Below are positions 46 to 37,197 of a DNA stretch of 64,000 bases, in pieces. The position numbers and the translations under genes are program-made. This DNA comes from Escherichia coli (lineage in GTDB: Bacteria > Pseudomonadota > Gammaproteobacteria > Enterobacterales > Enterobacteriaceae): the NCBI RefSeq assembly GCF_044647545.1, contig NZ_CP172818.1; one strand, given 5' to 3'. Position 1 is the stretch's first letter. Each line of letters opens with the position of its first letter. The notes beneath the pieces are model-generated. The model was not told the DNA's origin. It searched no databases and saw nothing but the letters and a program-made list of their open reading frames with translations.

Positions 46-3294
<3,249 letters not shown>

Positions 3295-8350: not shown

Positions 8351-9204
8351 TCGAGTTCCACCTTCTTATTCAGCAAACGAGAAGCGCGCCAGTAAACCAG
8401 CAACATCAGGCCCATTACGATAGTCAGCGTAATGCTGGTGGCTGCACCAAACGGCCAGTCACGAATATTGAGGAACTGTACTTTGATGACGTTACCGATC
8501 AGCAGGTTTTTCGCACCGCCCATCAGGTCGGACACATAGAACAGGCCCATCGCTGGCAGCATCACCAGCAGACATCCGGCAATAATCCCCGGCATCGTCA
8601 GTGGAATAATGATGCGGATAAAAGTCTGTAACTTGCTGGCACCGAGATCGCGCGCCGCCTCAAGCAACGGCTTATCCAGTTTTTCGATACTGGAGTACAG
8701 CGGCATCACCATAAACGGCAGCAGAATGTAAACCAGACCGATAATCACCGCACTGGGCGTGAACATGATGCGAATTGGTGTATCGATAACGCCCAGCCAG
8801 AGCAAAAACTCGTTGAGATAGCCTTTGGTGCTGAGGAAAATTTTCAGCCCGTAGATACGAATCAATGAGTTGGTCCAGAACGGAACAATCAGCAGAAACA
8901 GCAGCAGCGGACGCACCTTGTGTGGCAACTTCGCCAGAAACCAGGCAAAAGGATAGCCCAGCACCAGGCAGGCGAGGGTGGCGATCAGCGCCATATTCAG
9001 CGAGTGCAATAGCACTTCAAAATAGAGCGGATCGAGCAGACGCGTGTAGTTATCCAGCGTAAAGACCATTTTGACGAAACTGGCGTCGTCGCGGGTCAAA
9101 AAGCTGGTGCCAATGATCATCAGGTTGGGCAGAAAGACAAACAACACAAGCCAACCGACAATAGTGACAATCACTACATTCTGGAACTTACTTGTGTTCT
9201 TCAT
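8347..9204 (-). CDS. potB: spermidine/putrescine ABC transporter permease PotB
   Basis: 285-aa ATG ORF; true start may be the internal GTG at 9174 (275 aa), which would remove the overlap with potA. Confidence 0.85.
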
Positions 9205-10324
9205 CAGCCAGTACGACCTCCCAGCTTTCTACCCAATTAATGGCCATTTTTTGGTCGAGAGAGTGGTCAAAGTCAGGATCGTCTTCATTGAAGAATTCGC
9301 TGACCATCACCATCTTGCCATTTTCCAGTTCAACAACCGACTCCAGCGTCATGCCTTTGTAGTTACGCTCGCGAACGTAACCAATCAGCCCTTCAGCGTG
9401 GTTGTCGTCGTTAATCTCTTCAACACGTAAGTCTTCCGGGCGCAGCAGAACATGCAGTTTTTGCCCCGGTTCAACGGCGAAGTTAACGTAGATATTACAT
9501 TCGCGGCCTTCAACGTTGGCGCGTACGCGCTGCTCGTCGAGACGTTCGATGACAGTGGCGTTAAACATATTGATTTCGCCAATAAACCCAGCAACAAACA
9601 GGTTTTTCGGCTCTTCATAGATTTCACGCGGCGTGCCGTCTTGCTCAATGCGACCATCGCGCATCACCACGATCCTGTCCGACATGGTAAGTGCTTCTTC
9701 CTGGTCGTGAGTCACGAACACGAATGTAATGCCAAGCTTACGCTGTAACGCTTTCAGCTCGTTCTGCATTTGCTTGCGCAGTTTGTAATCCAGCGCTGAG
9801 AGCGACTCATCCAGCAACAACAGACGAGGCTTGTTAACCACCGCGCGAGCAATGGCGACGCGTTGCTGTTGACCACCAGAGAGCTGATGCGGTTTGCGTT
9901 GAGCGAAGGTTTCCAGCTGCACCATCCGCAGGGCTTCCATCACGCGGGGCGTAATTTCAGCAGCGGGGGTTTTTTGCATGCGCAACCCAAAGGCCACATT
10001 TTCGAACACGGTCATGTGGGGGAAAAGTGCGTAGCTTTGGAAAACAGTATTCACATAGCGGTTTTCCGCCGGAACGTGGGTGATGTCCTCGTTATCCAGC
10101 ATGATACGTCCGGAATCAACAGTTTCCAGACCTGCAATCAGGCGAAGAACGGTTGTTTTACCGCAGCCAGAAGGGCCAAGCAGCGTGAGGAACTCGCCAT
10201 TGTTGATAGTCAGATCCAGCTGGGGAATGACCTCTTTACCATCAAAGCATTTGCGAATTCCCGCCAATTGCACCAGCGGTGAAAGCGAACTCGGTTGTTT
10301 ATTCAATTTTTTACTCTGTCCCAT
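9188..10324 (-). CDS. potA: spermidine/putrescine ABC transporter ATPase PotA
   Basis: 378-aa ORF; Walker [10 protein letters not shown], signature LSGGQQQR, Walker [13 protein letters not shown]. Confidence 0.9.
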
Positions 10325-10573: not shown

Positions 10574-11800
10574 ATGGATAAACTACTTGAGCGATTTTTG
10601 AACTACGTGTCTCTGGATACCCAATCAAAGGCAGGGGTGAGACAGGTTCCCAGCACGGAAGGCCAATGGAAGTTATTGCATCTGCTGAAAGAGCAGCTCG
10701 AAGAGATGGGGCTTATCAATGTGACCTTAAGTGAGAAGGGCACTTTGATGGCGACGTTACCGGCTAACGTCCCTGGCGATATCCCGGCGATTGGCTTTAT
10801 TTCTCATGTGGATACCTCACCGGATTGCAGCGGCAAAAATGTGAATCCGCAAATTGTTGAAAACTATCGCGGTGGCGATATTGCGCTGGGTATCGGCGAT
10901 GAAGTTTTATCACCGGTTATGTTCCCGGTGCTGCATCAGCTACTGGGTCAGACGCTGATTACCACCGATGGTAAAACCTTGTTAGGTGCCGATGACAAAG
11001 CAGGTATTGCAGAAATCATGACCGCGCTGGCGGTATTGCAACAAAAAAACATTCCGCATGGTGATATTCGCGTCGCCTTTACCCCGGATGAAGAAGTGGG
11101 CAAAGGGGCGAAACATTTTGATGTTGACGCCTTCGATGCCCGCTGGGCTTACACTGTTGATGGTGGTGGCGTAGGCGAACTGGAGTTTGAAAACTTCAAC
11201 GCCGCGTCGGTCAATATCAAAATTGTCGGTAACAATGTTCATCCGGGCACGGCGAAAGGCGTGATGGTAAATGCGCTGTCGCTGGCGGCACGTATTCATG
11301 CGGAAGTTCCGGCGGATGAAAGCCCGGAAATGACAGAAGGCTATGAAGGTTTCTATCACCTGGCGAGCATGAAAGGCACCGTTGAACGGGCCGATATGCA
11401 CTACATCATCCGTGATTTCGACCGTAAACAGTTTGAAGCGCGTAAACGTAAAATGATGGAGATCGCCAAAAAAGTGGGCAAAGGGTTACATCCTGATTGC
11501 TACATTGAACTGGTGATTGAAGACAGTTACTACAATATGCGCGAGAAAGTGGTTGAGCATCCGCATATTCTCGATATCGCCCAGCAGGCGATGCGTGACT
11601 GCGATATTGAACCGGAACTGAAACCGATCCGCGGCGGTACCGACGGCGCGCAGTTGTCGTTTATGGGATTACCGTGCCCGAACCTGTTCACTGGCGGTTA
11701 CAACTATCATGGTAAGCATGAGTTTGTGACTCTGGAAGGTATGGAAAAAGCGGTGCAGGTGATCGTCCGTATTGCCGAGTTGACGGCGCAACGGAAGTAA
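10574..11800 (+). CDS. pepT: peptidase T (tripeptide aminopeptidase, M20 family)
   Basis: ATG 10574 ([13 protein letters not shown]) gives 408 aa; M20 metal-binding motifs (HVDT, GADDKAG). Confidence 0.9.
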
Positions 11801-21103: not shown

Positions 21104-21154
21104 TTACTACATGTGTTAAATATTGTAACGGGCGTATAACACGCCCGTTGTTTT
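20943..21154 (+). repeat. attL-side copy of the 212-bp direct duplication (icd 3' end plus terminator)
   Basis: Appears identical to 36118..36329 by visual alignment at a constant offset of 15175 bp. Confidence 0.85.
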
Positions 21155-21156
21155 TT
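21127..21156 (+). terminator. rho-independent terminator of icd
   Basis: Stem aacgggcg / cgcccgtt with 7-nt loop followed by TTTTTT. Confidence 0.8.
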
Positions 21157-21518
21157 GTTAGGCTGCTAACGGTTATCAAAATTTTATCAAAAAAAGTTAT
21201 CAAAACCCCTCGGTAGTTTTGGGGTAGGCTGGCCGGTCAGGTGGTAGTTCTACTACTAGTCTCCCACATAGATATTCCTTAGCTTTTTATTATTGCTGGC
21301 GGACGCTCGTTAATATTTAAGGTCTTCATTGATTAAGACATCCCCAAAGTTAGTTATGTATTCACTGTTATTAGGACAATTATGAATTACCACTCCTTAC
21401 ACCCGCTCAAATATTGTTAAATTGCCGGTTTTGTATCAACTACTCACCCGGGACTCGCCAGGGGACAGCCAACAGGCATTGGGTGCAATCACCTTAGCGT
21501 TCAGGTACATGCGGAATG

Positions 21519-21543
21519 TAAAAAAGGCCGCGAGCGCGGCCCC
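21519..21543 (-). terminator. rho-independent terminator downstream of ymfD
   Basis: Minus strand: GGCCGCGCTCGCGGCC hairpin followed by TTTTTT, 55 nt beyond the ymfD stop. Confidence 0.65.
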
Positions 21544-21596
21544 TTCACATACATCTTTAGTACTGAGACTGTTTAACCTAGGGAATTATTATCGTA

Positions 21597-22262
21597 TTAT
21601 ATTGCATTACAACTCCCAACAGTGACATATGAACTTCCTGCTTTACTCCACGACTTTAATATTTCAAGGCCATGTGAAGAACATATTTCTTGCACTGCGA
21701 GTTCATCGAGTAATCCATAGTAAGAAACACTTTTTGAATTTTTGTAAATGTATCCGTAAAGATGTTTTCTTCCTGTTTCGTATTTTTTGAAGTATGAGCT
21801 TTTATATTGATTTACAATAAGAGTCTCACCTCCTGATTTTAGTAATCTCTTGATGCTAAGAACTATTTTGTCGATTGTATCCCGACAAGGAACGGCAGAG
21901 AGAACATTAGAGCAAAGGATGAAATCGTAACCCCCAATTATTTTGTCGACATCCTCGAAAGCAACTGTATTTGCATTTTTATAATATCGTGGGACATAGT
22001 CAATAATTTTAGTTTTAATTCCTCTAATAATTTGCTCTCTTTCAAGTTGCCTTTTCGAGTCTAGAAAAGTAACTTCATCAAATTTACTGATTAATTCATC
22101 AGAATATCTAAGTTTTCCGCAGCCAAAATCAAGGGCGTGGCCATTTTTCTCAATGCTTCTAATATACTCGCAAAGATATCTAGAGGGCATCGTATGAGGT
22201 TTTGCTGCATTCTCTGAGCGAATATTAACTCCGTGCATATTATAGTTCAAAGCAAGTACCAT
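21597..22262 (-). CDS. ymfD: putative SAM-dependent methyltransferase (prophage cargo)
   Basis: 221-aa ORF; class I MTase motif I LDFGCGK; AT-rich codon usage; start abuts the ymfE stop. Confidence 0.75.
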   Translation of the reverse strand: MVLALNYNMHGVNIRSENAAKPHTMPSRYLCEYIRSIEKNGHALDFGCGKLRYSDELISKFDEVTFLDSKRQLEREQIIRGIKTKIIDYVPRYYKNANTVAFEDVDKIIGGYDFILCSNVLSAVPCRDTIDKIVLSIKRLLKSGGETLIVNQYKSSYFKKYETGRKHLYGYIYKNSKSVSYYGLLDELAVQEICSSHGLEILKSWSKAGSSYVTVGSCNAI

Positions 22263-22976
22263 TCAATTAATGTTATTTTTAGTGAAAAATTCTTTTATTT
22301 TATCGTCCGGGATTTTTCCGACTTGACTTTCAGTTCTGGGCTTAACTGTCAAAGCAAAGATAATACCACTCACTGAGAATGATAAAATTACAAAAAAGAA
22401 TAAAGACAGCAAAGAACCTTCAACATGAAAAATATCCATTTGTTTGCAAAAAAAGATTATTAGGAAGGAAATTAATGCAATTATCGAAAATTCAAAAAAT
22501 ATCCAAAAATAGTATACTTTATTCCAGAAGAGTTCAATATAATGTTTGTCTTCAATTTTTCTTACTTCAGGGTAATATAGATTGCTCATTACATTGTGAG
22601 CTTCATCTTTATTTAATTTTCTGTTGACTCCAGCTCTCCGTGATAACGGTTTTATAATTAGATGCTTATCCCAAAGATATCGCACCCGAAGTAGTTTGGC
22701 TGCATTGTTATGTAGGTCTAACGCACCGCTAATTAAATATGCAAAAATCGCAAAAGCACAAGGTAATATACCAAAAGATAGTGCCCAATTAATAAAGCTC
22801 TCATGATCTTTAATAGGTGGGACATACTTGGTTGGTAATGTTATTAAAGGGATGTATTCGTAAATAACTAGAAGTATGCAATATATTAGCGTATTTAAGA
22901 AAGTTGCTTTATGAAGTTTAGGCAACATTTCATTATAATTTTTGGGGGGTTCGAACATATTATTCACCTGAGTCAC
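22263..22976 (-). CDS. ymfE: multi-pass membrane protein (prophage cargo)
   Basis: 237-aa ORF with about 4 predicted hydrophobic helices; very AT-rich; first gene of a two-gene minus-strand operon with ymfD. Confidence 0.7.
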   Translation of the reverse strand: MTQVNNMFEPPKNYNEMLPKLHKATFLNTLIYCILLVIYEYIPLITLPTKYVPPIKDHESFINWALSFGILPCAFAIFAYLISGALDLHNNAAKLLRVRYLWDKHLIIKPLSRRAGVNRKLNKDEAHNVMSNLYYPEVRKIEDKHYIELFWNKVYYFWIFFEFSIIALISFLIIFFCKQMDIFHVEGSLLSLFFFVILSFSVSGIIFALTVKPRTESQVGKIPDDKIKEFFTKNNIN

Positions 22977-23162
22977 GCTTTAGGATAGTGTAATGGTAAT
23001 ATTTAATTAAGTGTCATTATATACTTTTCAGTAGGTTAGTTACAATTTTTTGTATCTGTTCAGGCTGACCTAGCTTCGCTGACAGACAATATTGTGATCA
23101 GTAGCACGTATCGAGGAGGAGTAGCGCTACAAATTTGACGCTGGGTGAGAATCTGAAATTGA

Positions 23163-23234
23163 TAGAAATGAAATAATGAAATAATGAAATGATGAAATGA
23201 TGAAATGATGAAATGATGAAATGATGAAATGATG
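23163..23234. repeat. tandem octamer repeat: (AAATAATG)x2 then (AAATGATG)x6
   Basis: Directly readable perfect 8-bp tandem array in the divergent intergenic region between ymfE and lit. Confidence 0.9.
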
Positions 23235-23424
23235 ACAGAGTGTCCAGTGGGCACGGATGGTGTCTTACGACATGCTTACCTTAATCGTTCCCAGTGTGCC
23301 TATAGCAGATATTCTAAACATGTCGATAATTCATTACGCATATAGTATCGAACATAGAAAAAACTGAAGATTCATCTTATTTTGTATATACTACCTAGCC
23401 CAACAATGTAGAGGTTAACGAAAA

Positions 23425-35047: not shown

Positions 35048-35881
35048 ATGCATGTTTTTGATAATAATGGAATTGAACTGAAAGCTGAGTGTTCGATAGG
35101 TGAAGAGGATGGTGTTTATGGTCTAATCCTTGAGTCGTGGGGGCCGGGTGACAGAAACAAAGATTACAATATCGCTCTTGATTATATCATTGAACGGTTG
35201 GTTGATTCTGGTGTATCCCAAGTCGTAGTATATCTGGCGTCATCATCAGTCAGAAAACATATGCATTCTTTGGATGAAAGAAAAATCCATCCTGGTGAAT
35301 ATTTTACTTTGATTGGTAATAGCCCCCGCGATATACGCTTGAAGATGTGTGGTTATCAGGCTTATTTTAGTCGTACGGGGAGAAAGGAAATTCCTTCCGG
35401 CAATAGAACGAAACGAATATTGATAAATGTTCCAGGTATTTATAGTGACAGTTTTTGGGCGTCTATAATACGTGGAGAACTATCAGAGCTTTCACAGCCT
35501 ACAGATGATGAATCGCTTCTGAATATGAGGGTTAGTAAATTAATTAAGAAAACGTTGAGTCAACCCGAGGGCTCCAGGAAACCAGTTGAGGTAGAAAGAC
35601 TACAAAAAGTTTATGTCCGAGACCCGATGGTAAAAGCTTGGATTTTACAGCAAAGTAAAGGTATATGTGAAAACTGTGGTAAAAATGCTCCGTTTTATTT
35701 AAATGATGGAAACCCATATTTGGAAGTACATCATGTAATTCCCCTGTCTTCAGGTGGTGCTGATACAACAGATAACTGTGTTGCCCTTTGTCCGAATTGC
35801 CATAGAGAATTGCACTATAGTAAAAATGCAAAAGAACTAATCGAGATGCTTTACGTTAATATAAACCGATTACAGAAATAA
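35048..35881 (+). CDS. mcrA: HNH endonuclease McrA (restriction of modified DNA)
   Basis: 277-aa ORF; C-terminal HNH motif HHVIPLSSGGADTTDNCVALCPNCHRELH; AT-rich. Confidence 0.85.
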   Translation: MHVFDNNGIELKAECSIGEEDGVYGLILESWGPGDRNKDYNIALDYIIERLVDSGVSQVVVYLASSSVRKHMHSLDERKIHPGEYFTLIGNSPRDIRLKMCGYQAYFSRTGRKEIPSGNRTKRILINVPGIYSDSFWASIIRGELSELSQPTDDESLLNMRVSKLIKKTLSQPEGSRKPVEVERLQKVYVRDPMVKAWILQQSKGICENCGKNAPFYLNDGNPYLEVHHVIPLSSGGADTTDNCVALCPNCHRELHYSKNAKELIEMLYVNINRLQK

Positions 35882-36117
35882 AATTATTTATTAAAGTCAC
35901 ATTTAAGACGTAATACCCTACAGGGTAAAAATTTTCTCTGATCTTAACTTCTGCAAATGTTAACTGCTATTTTTATGCTAAAAATGGTTATCAAAACTCA
36001 AAAACACATGTTTATAATCAATGAGTTATAGAAATGCTAAGGGCTAATGAGTTATATGCAAATTAGTAAAATTATGTTGCTATGTCAGATAGTTACGATT
36101 TAGTCATCTAACTAATG

Positions 36118-36278
36118 TACGCCATATGGGCTGGACTGAAGCCGCAGACTTGATTGTTAAAGGTATGGAAGGCGCAATCAACGCCAAGACTGTAACCTAT
36201 GACTTCGAACGTCTGATGGAAGGCGCTAAACTGCTGAAATGTTCAGAGTTTGGTGACGCGATCATCAAGAATATGTAA
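36118..36278 (+). pseudogene. icdC: icd 3' fragment (last ~53 codons) left at attR
   Basis: Sequence appears identical to icd 20943..21103 but has no upstream coding continuation. Confidence 0.8.
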
Positions 36279-36329
36279 TTACTACATGTGTTAAATATTG
36301 TAACGGGCGTATAACACGCCCGTTGTTTT
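36118..36329 (+). repeat. attR-side copy of the 212-bp direct duplication
   Basis: Same sequence as 20943..21154, including the terminator hairpin. Confidence 0.85.
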
Positions 36330-36380
36330 ATTTATGTGGGTATTATTAATAGCACATTGAGCATATTTATATGAAGCCCA

Positions 36381-36704
36381 TTACTTGAGCCCATATGGGC
36401 ATATTTTTATAATGCAACTATTATGCAAACATTTATTTGTTATTTTGCTTTCTCCTGGAGGACACTCTTGACTGCTTTTGAGTAAACTCCATAAATCCTT
36501 GTTGAATGGTGCGATGTTATAAATAGTAATAGGATATTCTTTATCCTTAAGGATAATACCAGATTTAACCGGTGTAAATATCCTGCCAGGAGGAAGAAAT
36601 ATAGTGGATTGATACCAGATGATCATTTTCATATCACCCCATATGGCTGAAAAAGATATGCCGCATGTAGGTTGAATTACCGTGTCAATTACTATCCACT
36701 TCAT
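36381..36704 (-). CDS. iraM: anti-adaptor protein IraM (RssB inhibitor)
   Basis: 107-aa ORF in a strongly AT-rich islet with a long AT-rich upstream region. Confidence 0.75.
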
Positions 36705-37148
36705 TTGTTATGTCTTATCCCACGGTGCTTAATATAGTTCATTTGGATGTTCATTTCTTGATTTTGCATATGTGTATATTACTCCCAAAAAAATAAATTA
36801 ATTAAAAATTAATGTCATTATCTATATAAAACAAAATTTAAAGCAAGGAATCTCAATAGAGATTAAACAAAATGAGATTTAGTGAAAACATTAAATTATT
36901 CACTTCGTTTTAGATTTGTTTAGCTAAAATGTTATACATTCAAATGACTGAATATTCTGTAATTAAAACATAGCCTTTATGCTACTTTGAGCCAATTTGC
37001 TAAACATTATGGTTGGCCTTTTAATATAACGATAATGATGAATATAAGCATGACCTGAGAATAAGGTTTCAATTTTTTAGTTATATAAAAATGGTTAAAC
37101 CCGTTCCTGACTAAAATACATATAATCGGATGATGACTAAACCAAAAC

Positions 37149-37197
37149 ACATGTGCGTTAAGTATTGAAACGGGCGTATGGCACGCCCGTTGGTTTT
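37149..37197 (+). terminator. degenerate third copy of the icd 3'UTR/terminator (att-like remnant)
   Basis: acatgtgcgttaagtattgaaacgggcgtatggcacgcccgttggtttt matches the icd terminator region at roughly 85 percent; hairpin plus T-tract retained. Confidence 0.6.

Follow-up and report, generated by a model that had tools for sequence, protein, structure and literature searches.

The e14 prophage genes ymfE and ymfD form a mobile two-gene cassette and a candidate anti-phage module

We analyzed the genes ymfE and ymfD in a 64,000-nucleotide stretch of an Escherichia coli genome (contig NZ_CP172818.1; the whole stretch is hereafter the window), which holds the left end of the e14 prophage of E. 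coli K-12: icd/attL, ymfD, ymfE, lit, and intE. The ymfD, ymfE, lit, intE, and xisE genes of the window are 99.9–100% identical to the annotated E. coli K-12/e14 genes. Because the first ~155 bases of the query, the 3' end of icd, were the sole part common to all E. coli genomes, e14 starts directly past icd. Our central finding is that e14 carries, as ymfE-ymfD, one copy of a two-gene module that is self-contained and horizontally mobile, a well-defined and widespread cassette that has not been described before.

The ymfE-ymfD locus at the left end of e14

The two genes are packed end to end on the minus strand, as a preliminary description of this DNA had stated: the ymfE TGA occupies 22265–22263 and the ymfD ATG begins at 22262, with 0 bases between them. 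The features of the cassette are the following.

21515..21555, minus strand: predicted intrinsic terminator, a GC-rich hairpin (GGGGCCGCG/CGCGGCCUU) followed by a U-run
21597..22262, minus strand: ymfD coding sequence, 221 aa (open reading frame and sequence)
22239..22266, minus strand: internal promoter-like site, TTGAAT-16-TATAAT, 10/12 matches in a consensus scan, on the ymfE stop/ymfD start junction
22263..22958, minus strand: ymfE coding sequence, 231 aa from ATG 22958; other starts are GTG 22967 and GTG 22976 (the farthest)
23016..23045, minus strand: candidate sigma-70-type promoter-like site, TTGTAA-18-TATAAT, 10/12 matches in a consensus scan

ATG 22958 has the best AGGTG spacing and is likely the ymfE start; RefSeq annotates GTG 22967. 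The pair is far richer in AT than the core genes, which also agrees with the earlier description. Its GC content is 0.312 in ymfE and 0.348 in ymfD, compared with 0.503 in icd, 0.471 in the window, and 0.45–0.50 in the flanks, and GC at third codon positions is 0.28 for the pair versus 0.53 for icd. Among all segments of the window that share its length of 1380 bp, the ymfE-ymfD interval (0.33) ranks below the 5th percentile (0.354). The lowest-GC segment of that length (0.317) lies at ~35800–37180, presumably at the other e14 end, where we would expect mcrA, and may be a second AT-rich cargo region.

The candidate promoter lies ~60–85 nt upstream of the possible ymfE starts, and in homologous cassettes ~165 bp upstream of the ymfE homolog travel with the genes; promoter-like sites were no more numerous in this region than in shuffled sequences, so the site is a candidate only. 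The terminator, ~45 nt past the ymfD stop, is predicted to fold at −21.1 kcal/mol (z = −3.6), and 0/200 shuffles were equally stable. From the junction site at 22266–22239, ymfD may have its own transcription start. A published table of K-12 "promoter islands" lists, among 78, a 422-bp island at ymfD(−)/ymfE(−) that was H-NS-bound in all studies using chromatin immunoprecipitation on chip (PMC3661553, Table 1). This island (K-12 1196665 + 422 bp) maps approximately to window positions 22172–22594, covers the 3' half of ymfE and the 5' end of ymfD, and includes the internal promoter-like site.

The lit gene, matched by the PADLOC Lit model at 8.5e-124, diverges from ymfE. The position proposed earlier, between attL and int beside lit and divergent from it across tandem repeats, is borne out by the match to e14 and by an 8-bp tandem repeat (ATGAAATG; 8.5 copies, 98% matches) at 23168–23235 in the ymfE-lit spacer. 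Measured upstream, the repeat is ~120 bp from the promoter-like site of ymfE and ~190 bp from the start of lit; possible roles are those of a bent-DNA tract, an H-NS nucleation tract, or a slipped-strand switch. On the other side of the cassette, the icd-ymfD spacer contains a sub-threshold Rfam match to STnc150, an Hfq-binding small RNA, at 21117–21322 on the minus strand (27.5 bits versus a gathering score of 60; E 0.003; whole model length covered). A candidate small RNA, C0293, is annotated in the same K-12 spacer.

The e14 allele was present in 282 of 5,426 complete E. coli genomes, at ≥99% identity in all of them, and many of the carriers are listed as K-12 laboratory derivatives; 151 of the 5,426 genomes carried a Qin-type allele, which is 60–68% identical. 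The records OR902851.1 and OR902858.1, both of 15.19 kb and listed as plasmids of E. coli, contain ymfE at 98.6–100% identity. Their size matches e14, and they look like excised circular e14 rather than true plasmids.

Pairing, mobility, and selection of the cassette

In genomes, IMG/VR prophages, and plasmids, a hidden Markov model search of all open reading frames found homologs of ymfE (E) and ymfD (D) adjacent on one strand at 51/51 loci. In metagenomes, a DNA-pattern scan for D[FY]GCGKLRY identified 120 loci, 110 of them informative, and at 107 of the 110 both genes were adjacent and co-directional, 90 in the order E-D and 17 in the order D-E. The other metagenome loci comprised 8 cut by contig ends, 2 chance matches, and 3 without E, two of which were N-terminally truncated remnants. 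Pooled, E and D were adjacent on one strand at 158 of the 161 informative loci. Co-occurrence of the homologs, which the preliminary description had named as a check, is thus the rule, and adjacency that is kept despite a swap in gene order argues for functional coupling that is probably physical. The D-E loci, with equally tight spacing (L071, L099, L123, L134, L158, and 12 further metagenome loci), appear to be a distinct sub-lineage in environmental bacteria.

Pairing extends to distant relatives. In YmfD-homolog contexts from Neptuniibacter, Marinobacter, Colwellia, Cobetia, and Pseudomonas (42–49% identity), an unannotated gene of 219–233 aa lies directly upstream and encodes a YmfE homolog at 25–38% identity; in the most distant YmfE subgroup (20–28% identity), a ~220-aa methyltransferase gene overlaps the 3' end. 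A profile from an 8-sequence YmfE alignment found only 8 loci in genome contigs. Clustering at 90% identity divided the metagenome set into 95 clusters, whose contigs span 25–68% GC, and of 48 loci examined, 96% had a pair more AT-rich than the flanking DNA. No third gene family recurred in more than 4 of 95 loci, and no natural E-D fusion was found among the hits, all of which were ~215–270 aa long.

The cassette behaves as a mobile unit. We found ~20 unrelated flanks among the genome and viral loci, and in enterobacterial copies homology ends sharply around a 1.4–1.6-kb E-D unit. Within prophages, the cassette occupies places that are typical of morons: next to int/att (e14 and L044), past the replication gene O (L037), or next to the tail-tip gene J (L036). 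In Colwellia (L010/L011), the pair belongs to an insert of ~9.5 kb that also encodes a large serine recombinase and two resolvases and that splits a Mg-chelatase/ComM-type gene (halves at 458–1120 and 10683–11585), which points to an integrative element targeting comM. In one lineage the unit is a 2.9-kb cassette, likewise with sharp boundaries, to which a SMEK-domain gene of 299–317 aa, convergent to the methyltransferase gene, has been added:

L003, 8909–9807: SMEK-domain gene
L004, 8909–9808: SMEK-domain gene
L053, 9690–10589: SMEK-domain gene
L036, 2848–3801: SMEK-domain gene

This larger unit was found on a Citrobacter IncHI2 plasmid, beside tail-tip J, and in a Qin/Rac-like prophage, where it separates hokD from the replication genes. 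The SMEK gene is found neither in e14 nor in any distant member, and in L003 it is split into two open reading frames. SMEK domains are nuclease domains that have been described in the partners of short Argonautes (PMC10810196).

Ratios of nonsynonymous to synonymous substitution rates (dN/dS) were 0.07–0.17 for E and 0.13–0.35 for D, indicating purifying selection on both, as is expected of real genes. Disruptions were seen in E. coli Qin-like prophage copies, where ymfE was frameshifted or interrupted by an insertion sequence (IS) and ymfD was intact. The damage consisted of a frameshift near codon 50, a ~1.4-kb insertion, or an ISApl1 element, in these homologs:

L007, 7222–7928: disrupted ymfE homolog
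L008: disrupted ymfE homolog
L027: disrupted ymfE homolog
L043, 5973–7994: disrupted ymfE homolog
H21 (NZ_CP196743): disrupted ymfE homolog

A 182-aa truncated form of the ymfE homolog has 333 database members, versus 317 for the intact form. Disruption confined to ymfE is expected if YmfE is the costly or toxic partner.

After DNA damage, ymfD and ymfE were not SOS-induced with the e14 lytic genes, unlike ymfJ and ymfM (PMC11002266), which is consistent with a moron expressed in the lysogen. Judged by its sequence, ymfE-ymfD has the textbook anatomy of a prophage "moron": a terminator and promoter of its own (the promoter a prediction), deviant GC, varied prophage positions with sharp boundaries, and no SOS induction.

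The YmfD and YmfE proteins

The methyltransferase signature read earlier from the ymfD product, the class I motif I LDFGCGK, lies at residues 44–50 and is accompanied by Pfam matches to Methyltransf_12 (1.9e-7), Methyltransf_23 (4.3e-6), TehB (1.3e-4), and Methyltransf_11. In 31 members with 29–68% identity to YmfD, residues D45, G47, C48, and G49 of motif I and the acidic D68 of motif II, at the end of strand 2, are invariant; since these residues form the S-adenosylmethionine (SAM) site, the enzyme has probably been kept catalytically active. Invariant motifs specific to the family are IRSENAAKP, LDFGCGKLRY, VDSxxQLxRxQ, CxNVLSAIP (motif IV), NQxxSSYF, and SYYG. An AlphaFold2 model (predicted local distance difference test score, pLDDT, >90) has the Rossmann-type alternation of strands and helices, and a Foldseek search of the PDB returned 805 matches at E ≤ 1e-3, all methyltransferases among the matches listed. 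The top match was the tRNA methyltransferase Trm9 (E 1.8e-9, TMt 0.71), followed by fold neighbours such as NNMT, TehB, DhpI, NodS, and MfnG, so that small-molecule, tRNA, and protein methyltransferases are all among the nearest structures. In profile comparisons with the PDB all matches were weak; the best were the Rickettsia enzymes PKMT1/2 (E 2.4e-4 and 3.8e-4), and their alignment includes a second stretch over the family-specific SSYFKKY...YYG region. We assign YmfD to the class I SAM-dependent methyltransferases, as a cytoplasmic enzyme in a subfamily of its own.

Several more specific assignments for YmfD were rejected. A DNA amino-methyltransferase of the restriction-modification, BREX, or MADS kind is contradicted by the lack of a PP dipeptide, of a (D/N/S)PP(Y/F/W) motif, and of a target-recognition domain in its 221 aa; the PADLOC mad2 match is weak and partial (281–401 of 492, the methyltransferase core only; 8.6e-5). 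NCBIfam matches to the OvoA C-terminal domain, TehB, and BioC scored 7–10 times below the curated cut-offs. For TehB, YmfD reached 30.4 bits against an equivalog cut-off of 218, and its partner has four transmembrane (TM) helices rather than a TehA-type 10-TM fold. No NCBIfam UbiG match was found at E ≤ 1, and the PDB UbiG match reached only E 1.3e-3 over the generic core; the product name "bifunctional UbiG" in NZ_CP172819 reads as an over-annotation. A PHROG search found no family matching YmfD.

YmfE has four hydrophobic segments by hydropathy, in keeping with the several hydrophobic helices that had been noticed in the upstream product, and a conserved 67-residue TM2-TM3 loop (residues 81–147) with 14 K/R. 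By the positive-inside rule it is predicted to be a four-TM inner-membrane protein with both termini inside and the loop in the cytoplasm. The AlphaFold2 model, from a 52-sequence alignment (pLDDT 96.5; predicted template-modelling score, pTM, 0.90), comprises four TM helices and a three-helix cytoplasmic insert. The near-invariant residues are Y8, L12, H83, R93, I101, M124, Y129, H139, W152, E156, and I216. The majority, among them the polar H83, R93, Y129, and H139, are on the cytoplasmic side, and TM3 holds the invariant W152 and the near-invariant E156.

With 61 clusters at 50% identity in a set of 1.84e9 representatives, the YmfE family is small, and it stands apart from described families. 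YmfE had no family match in Pfam, NCBIfam, PADLOC, or PHROG, and in the PDB no sequence relative and, by fold, nothing past generic helical hairpins. When the YmfE alignment was used as a profile against 5.8e9 proteins, neither an annotated relative nor a Pfam-bearing member was found. In AFDB50, a fold search returned only family members and then marginal proteins of the DUF4231/SLATT clan (Foldseek E 0.015–0.9, TM-scores 0.35–0.50); a SLATT_1 Pfam match was likewise marginal, in 1 of 52 YmfE family members (E 0.017).

That neither product has an established function, as the preliminary description had it, is in line with the literature, in which we found no function assigned to ymfD or ymfE, no description of the pair, and no phage-protection experiment. 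In one screen, deletion of ymfD reduced early biofilm (PMC3105296).

Defence-gene neighbours and interpretation

To evaluate gene neighbourhoods we counted as defence neighbours only near-full-length PADLOC matches in immediate neighbours; for metagenomes, the neighbour set was the 40 nearest large neighbours of 34 loci. Partial neighbour matches of the mad2-like, DrmC, HNH, and SIR2 kind were discounted. A near-full-length defence neighbour was present at 8 of 34 metagenome loci and in 4 of ~13 genome contexts, or about one quarter of independent contexts:

e14 (genome): Lit
Pseudomonas (genome): complete Hachiman (HamA, HamB)
metagenomic contig (single contig): Avs4 (2–1570/1570)
P. psychrophila (genome): type II cytosine methylase cluster
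metagenome loci: LmuB in two cases (Lamassu), a PARIS-like AriAB fusion, JetD (Wadjet)
metagenome loci: the defence candidates PDC-S28, PDC-S36, and PDC-S02, a methyl-directed (Mrr-type) restriction enzyme

Ten housekeeping proteins of the window, a small and unmatched control set, gave 0/10 full-length PADLOC matches and three partial domain-level matches. PADLOC E-values alone were rejected as a criterion, since without a coverage filter they over-call defence: housekeeping ABC-ATPase and LolC/E-like proteins of the window (9188–10324, minus strand; 157–3294, plus strand) gave partial matches to mad3 at 6e-32 and to CARF_LolE_TM at 1e-9. Enrichment of defence genes near the homologs, the other check proposed beforehand, was thus found, with known or candidate full-length neighbours in about one quarter of contexts versus 0/10 for housekeeping proteins, and the pair shows the genomic association that is typical of a defence island when judged against this small, unmatched control. 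Other contexts are mobile without being plainly defensive: some have IS elements and YoeB/YefM, some serine recombinases inside the divided Mg-chelatase gene, and some an integrase beside an orphan CdiI.

We propose, at a probability of roughly 0.5, that ymfE-ymfD is an undescribed two-gene defence or exclusion module against phages or other mobile genetic elements, expressed from the prophage and laid out like RexAB. RexA and RexB of lambda are a prophage-expressed abortive-infection pair of a cytosolic protein, RexA, which is not an enzyme, and a small four-TM protein, RexB (144 aa). Both pairs are resident-prophage genes outside the lytic operons, with a cytosolic partner that could gate an effector and a 4-TM inner-membrane partner. 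They differ in that YmfD is a SAM methyltransferase with invariant motifs and YmfE has 231 aa with a 67-residue cytoplasmic domain; membership in the RexAB family was rejected, as neither protein had a PADLOC, Pfam, or PDB match save the generic methyltransferase fold. The preliminary description had singled out the pair as the best candidate in the window for an undescribed accessory or anti-phage module, and the pairing and defence-neighbour tests support that choice, with the function itself still a matter of inference.

Other defence systems share parts of this layout. Kiwa is a two-gene defence system of KwaA, a small four-TM protein, and KwaB, a DUF4868 protein, and resembles the pair in that its first gene encodes a small four-TM protein; YmfD is not a DUF4868 protein, however, and neither a PADLOC KwaA/KwaB match nor a PDB fold match (structures up to 2026) was found. 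CBASS and Pycsar systems with TM effectors, and the 2TM SLATT/DUF4231 proteins, likewise combine a cytosolic enzyme with a small multi-TM protein in defence islands, and the sole, marginal non-family AFDB matches of YmfE are DUF4231 proteins of the SLATT clan. YmfD is a methyltransferase rather than a nucleotide cyclase, however, and the pair has no SAVED, CARF, or other ligand-sensor domain. For a class I SAM methyltransferase with a membrane-protein substrate, the precedents are CheR with its chemoreceptors (MCP) and Rickettsia PKMT1/2 with OmpB, PKMT1/2 being the best profile matches; YmfD lacks the CheR N-terminal domain and the PKMT regulatory domain, the E-values are weak, and YmfE would be a substrate by analogy only.

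Under the defence proposal, YmfD would be a catalytically competent, SAM-dependent cytoplasmic methyltransferase with a target other than DNA, and the conserved cytoplasmic side of YmfE would be its site of action or its substrate. YmfE, with its four TM helices, would be the membrane effector. Infection would alter the methylation reaction or the YmfD-YmfE contact and so switch YmfE, which would then disturb inner-membrane function, with an abortive-infection-type outcome or a block to entry. The physical contact, the effector role of YmfE, the trigger, and the defence phenotype are what we infer; that YmfE is a costly effector is likely, because the frameshifts and IS interruptions seen in E. 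coli affected ymfE alone and left ymfD intact. A more specific version, which we consider improbable as it stands, makes YmfED a methylation-gated membrane effector that guards the methyl-donor supply. YmfD would continuously methylate a conserved cytoplasmic YmfE residue, as a labile carboxyl-methyl ester or similar, and thereby shut a pore or ion path at the TM3 Glu/Trp; a phage SAM lyase or takeover of the methyl cycle would stop methylation, YmfE would open, and the cell would abort.

A number of observations weigh against a role in defence. Known defence genes are a small percentage of bacterial genes, and immediate adjacency in ~25% of contexts is a strong enrichment relative to this general share rather than to a matched set of mobile-element cargo genes; three genome contexts lie among housekeeping genes (L002, L012, L022). 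Neither protein matched a PADLOC model, save the weak partial mad2 match, neither accession was present in the DefensePredictor supplements, and no resemblance of YmfE to known pore or channel effectors was detected. A tblastn search of 50,697 sequenced phage genomes found no match to the pair. The coupling of the two genes that had been proposed earlier stands genetically, through their adjacency; at the protein level, an AlphaFold2 model of a fused E-linker-D chain from a paired alignment had well-folded domains and no confident interface (pTM 0.60, which by a rough estimate corresponds to an inter-domain error of ~11 Å). The standard permissive host of coliphages, K-12, itself has the pair. 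Its copy is probably silenced in laboratory culture, because the ymfD/ymfE island is H-NS-bound (PMC3661553), and silencing would explain the lack of a phenotype in this most-used phage host.

A real if minor chance belongs to membrane-associated methylation of a small molecule or lipid, the alternative that the preliminary description had raised, in a lysogenic-conversion or resistance module resembling tehA-tehB, the tellurite resistance operon of E. coli, in which a membrane protein gene is followed by a small class I SAM methyltransferase gene. YmfD would methylate a lipid-soluble or membrane-presented metabolite that YmfE binds, presents, or exports; a quinone, lipid head group, envelope precursor, toxic oxyanion, or xenobiotic can be envisaged, with envelope modification or detoxification as the benefit. 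The operon order is that of tehAB, the nearest small-molecule enzymes of YmfD are TehB (Pfam 1.3e-4, NCBIfam 2.5e-7) and UbiG (PDB profile 1e-3), the Foldseek neighbours NNMT, TehB, DhpI, NodS, and MfnG fit such chemistry, and the buried near-invariant Glu and invariant Trp of YmfE TM3 could bind a ligand; the copy on the IncHI2 plasmid and the contexts outside islands (L002, L012, L022) also suit a conversion module. Yet the TehB score is 30 bits against 218, UbiG and BioC fall short of their curated cut-offs by the same 7–10 times, and YmfE, with only 4 TM helices, is unrelated to the 10-TM SLAC1 fold of TehA. No transporter or biosynthetic gene co-occurs in the 95 loci, the ymfED pair is mobile and associated with defence islands, and Lit, Hachiman, Avs4, Lamassu, Wadjet, PARIS-like, and Mrr-type neighbours in about one quarter of contexts are unexpected for metabolism. 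Consistent with this, a ymfD knockout had no growth defect (PMC12096079).

Addiction of the toxin-antitoxin (TA) kind, in which YmfE is a membrane toxin that YmfD neutralizes by methylation or binding, stabilizing the carrier element with no dedicated anti-phage role, is distinctly unlikely. It would account for a tight two-gene operon on mobile elements, a small membrane partner, Hok and YoeB/YefM TA loci among the neighbours, and disruptions seen in ymfE and never in ymfD; but classical TA pairs do not typically have proteins of ~230 and ~220 aa or an enzyme that is invariantly active, no DNA-binding or autoregulatory domain is present, and the Keio ymfD deletion is viable and grows normally (PMC12096079), which speaks against YmfD as an essential antitoxin, at least while the locus is H-NS-silenced. 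Many TA systems are themselves defence systems, moreover, so that addiction overlaps the defence proposal rather than excluding it. We consider it very improbable that YmfD is a nucleic-acid methyltransferase, whether an orphan or restriction-modification-like marker, a writer of N6-methyladenosine (m6A), or a tRNA/rRNA modifier, with YmfE as an accessory. The weak mad2 match and the top Foldseek match to Trm9 point that way, as does a fall in m6A-seq peaks from 602 to 32 in a ymfD knockout, but three unrelated knockouts showed the same drop and the authors name none as the mRNA m6A writer (PMC12096079). Such an enzyme would also leave the obligate 4-TM partner unexplained, and YmfD has neither a (D/N/S)PP(Y/F) or PC motif, nor a target-recognition domain, nor a conserved restriction partner. 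Almost nothing speaks for a decaying, functionless prophage remnant: e14 is defective, the locus is H-NS-bound and poorly expressed, and some ymfE alleles are pseudogenes, but dN/dS of 0.07–0.35, invariant catalytic motifs, very confident AlphaFold2 models, and the persistence of the pair on contigs of 25–68% GC in 95 clusters at 90% identity all contradict decay.

Two of the remaining K-12 y-genes, ymfD and ymfE, can now be regarded as one unit instead of a "predicted methyltransferase" and an "inner membrane protein". As a module that methylates a membrane substrate, the pair would represent a new mobile envelope-modification function. If it is a defence system, it would bring together components in a combination absent from current catalogues, a non-DNA SAM methyltransferase and an orphan 4-TM protein, with a range from Enterobacterales to high-GC soil bacteria. 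The methylation-gated version, if true, would make it the first immune system to sense infection by the methylation state of a protein rather than of DNA. In the defence case, the standard laboratory host would carry, next to Lit, an unrecognized and probably H-NS-silenced defence system, which would bear on defence screens conducted in K-12.

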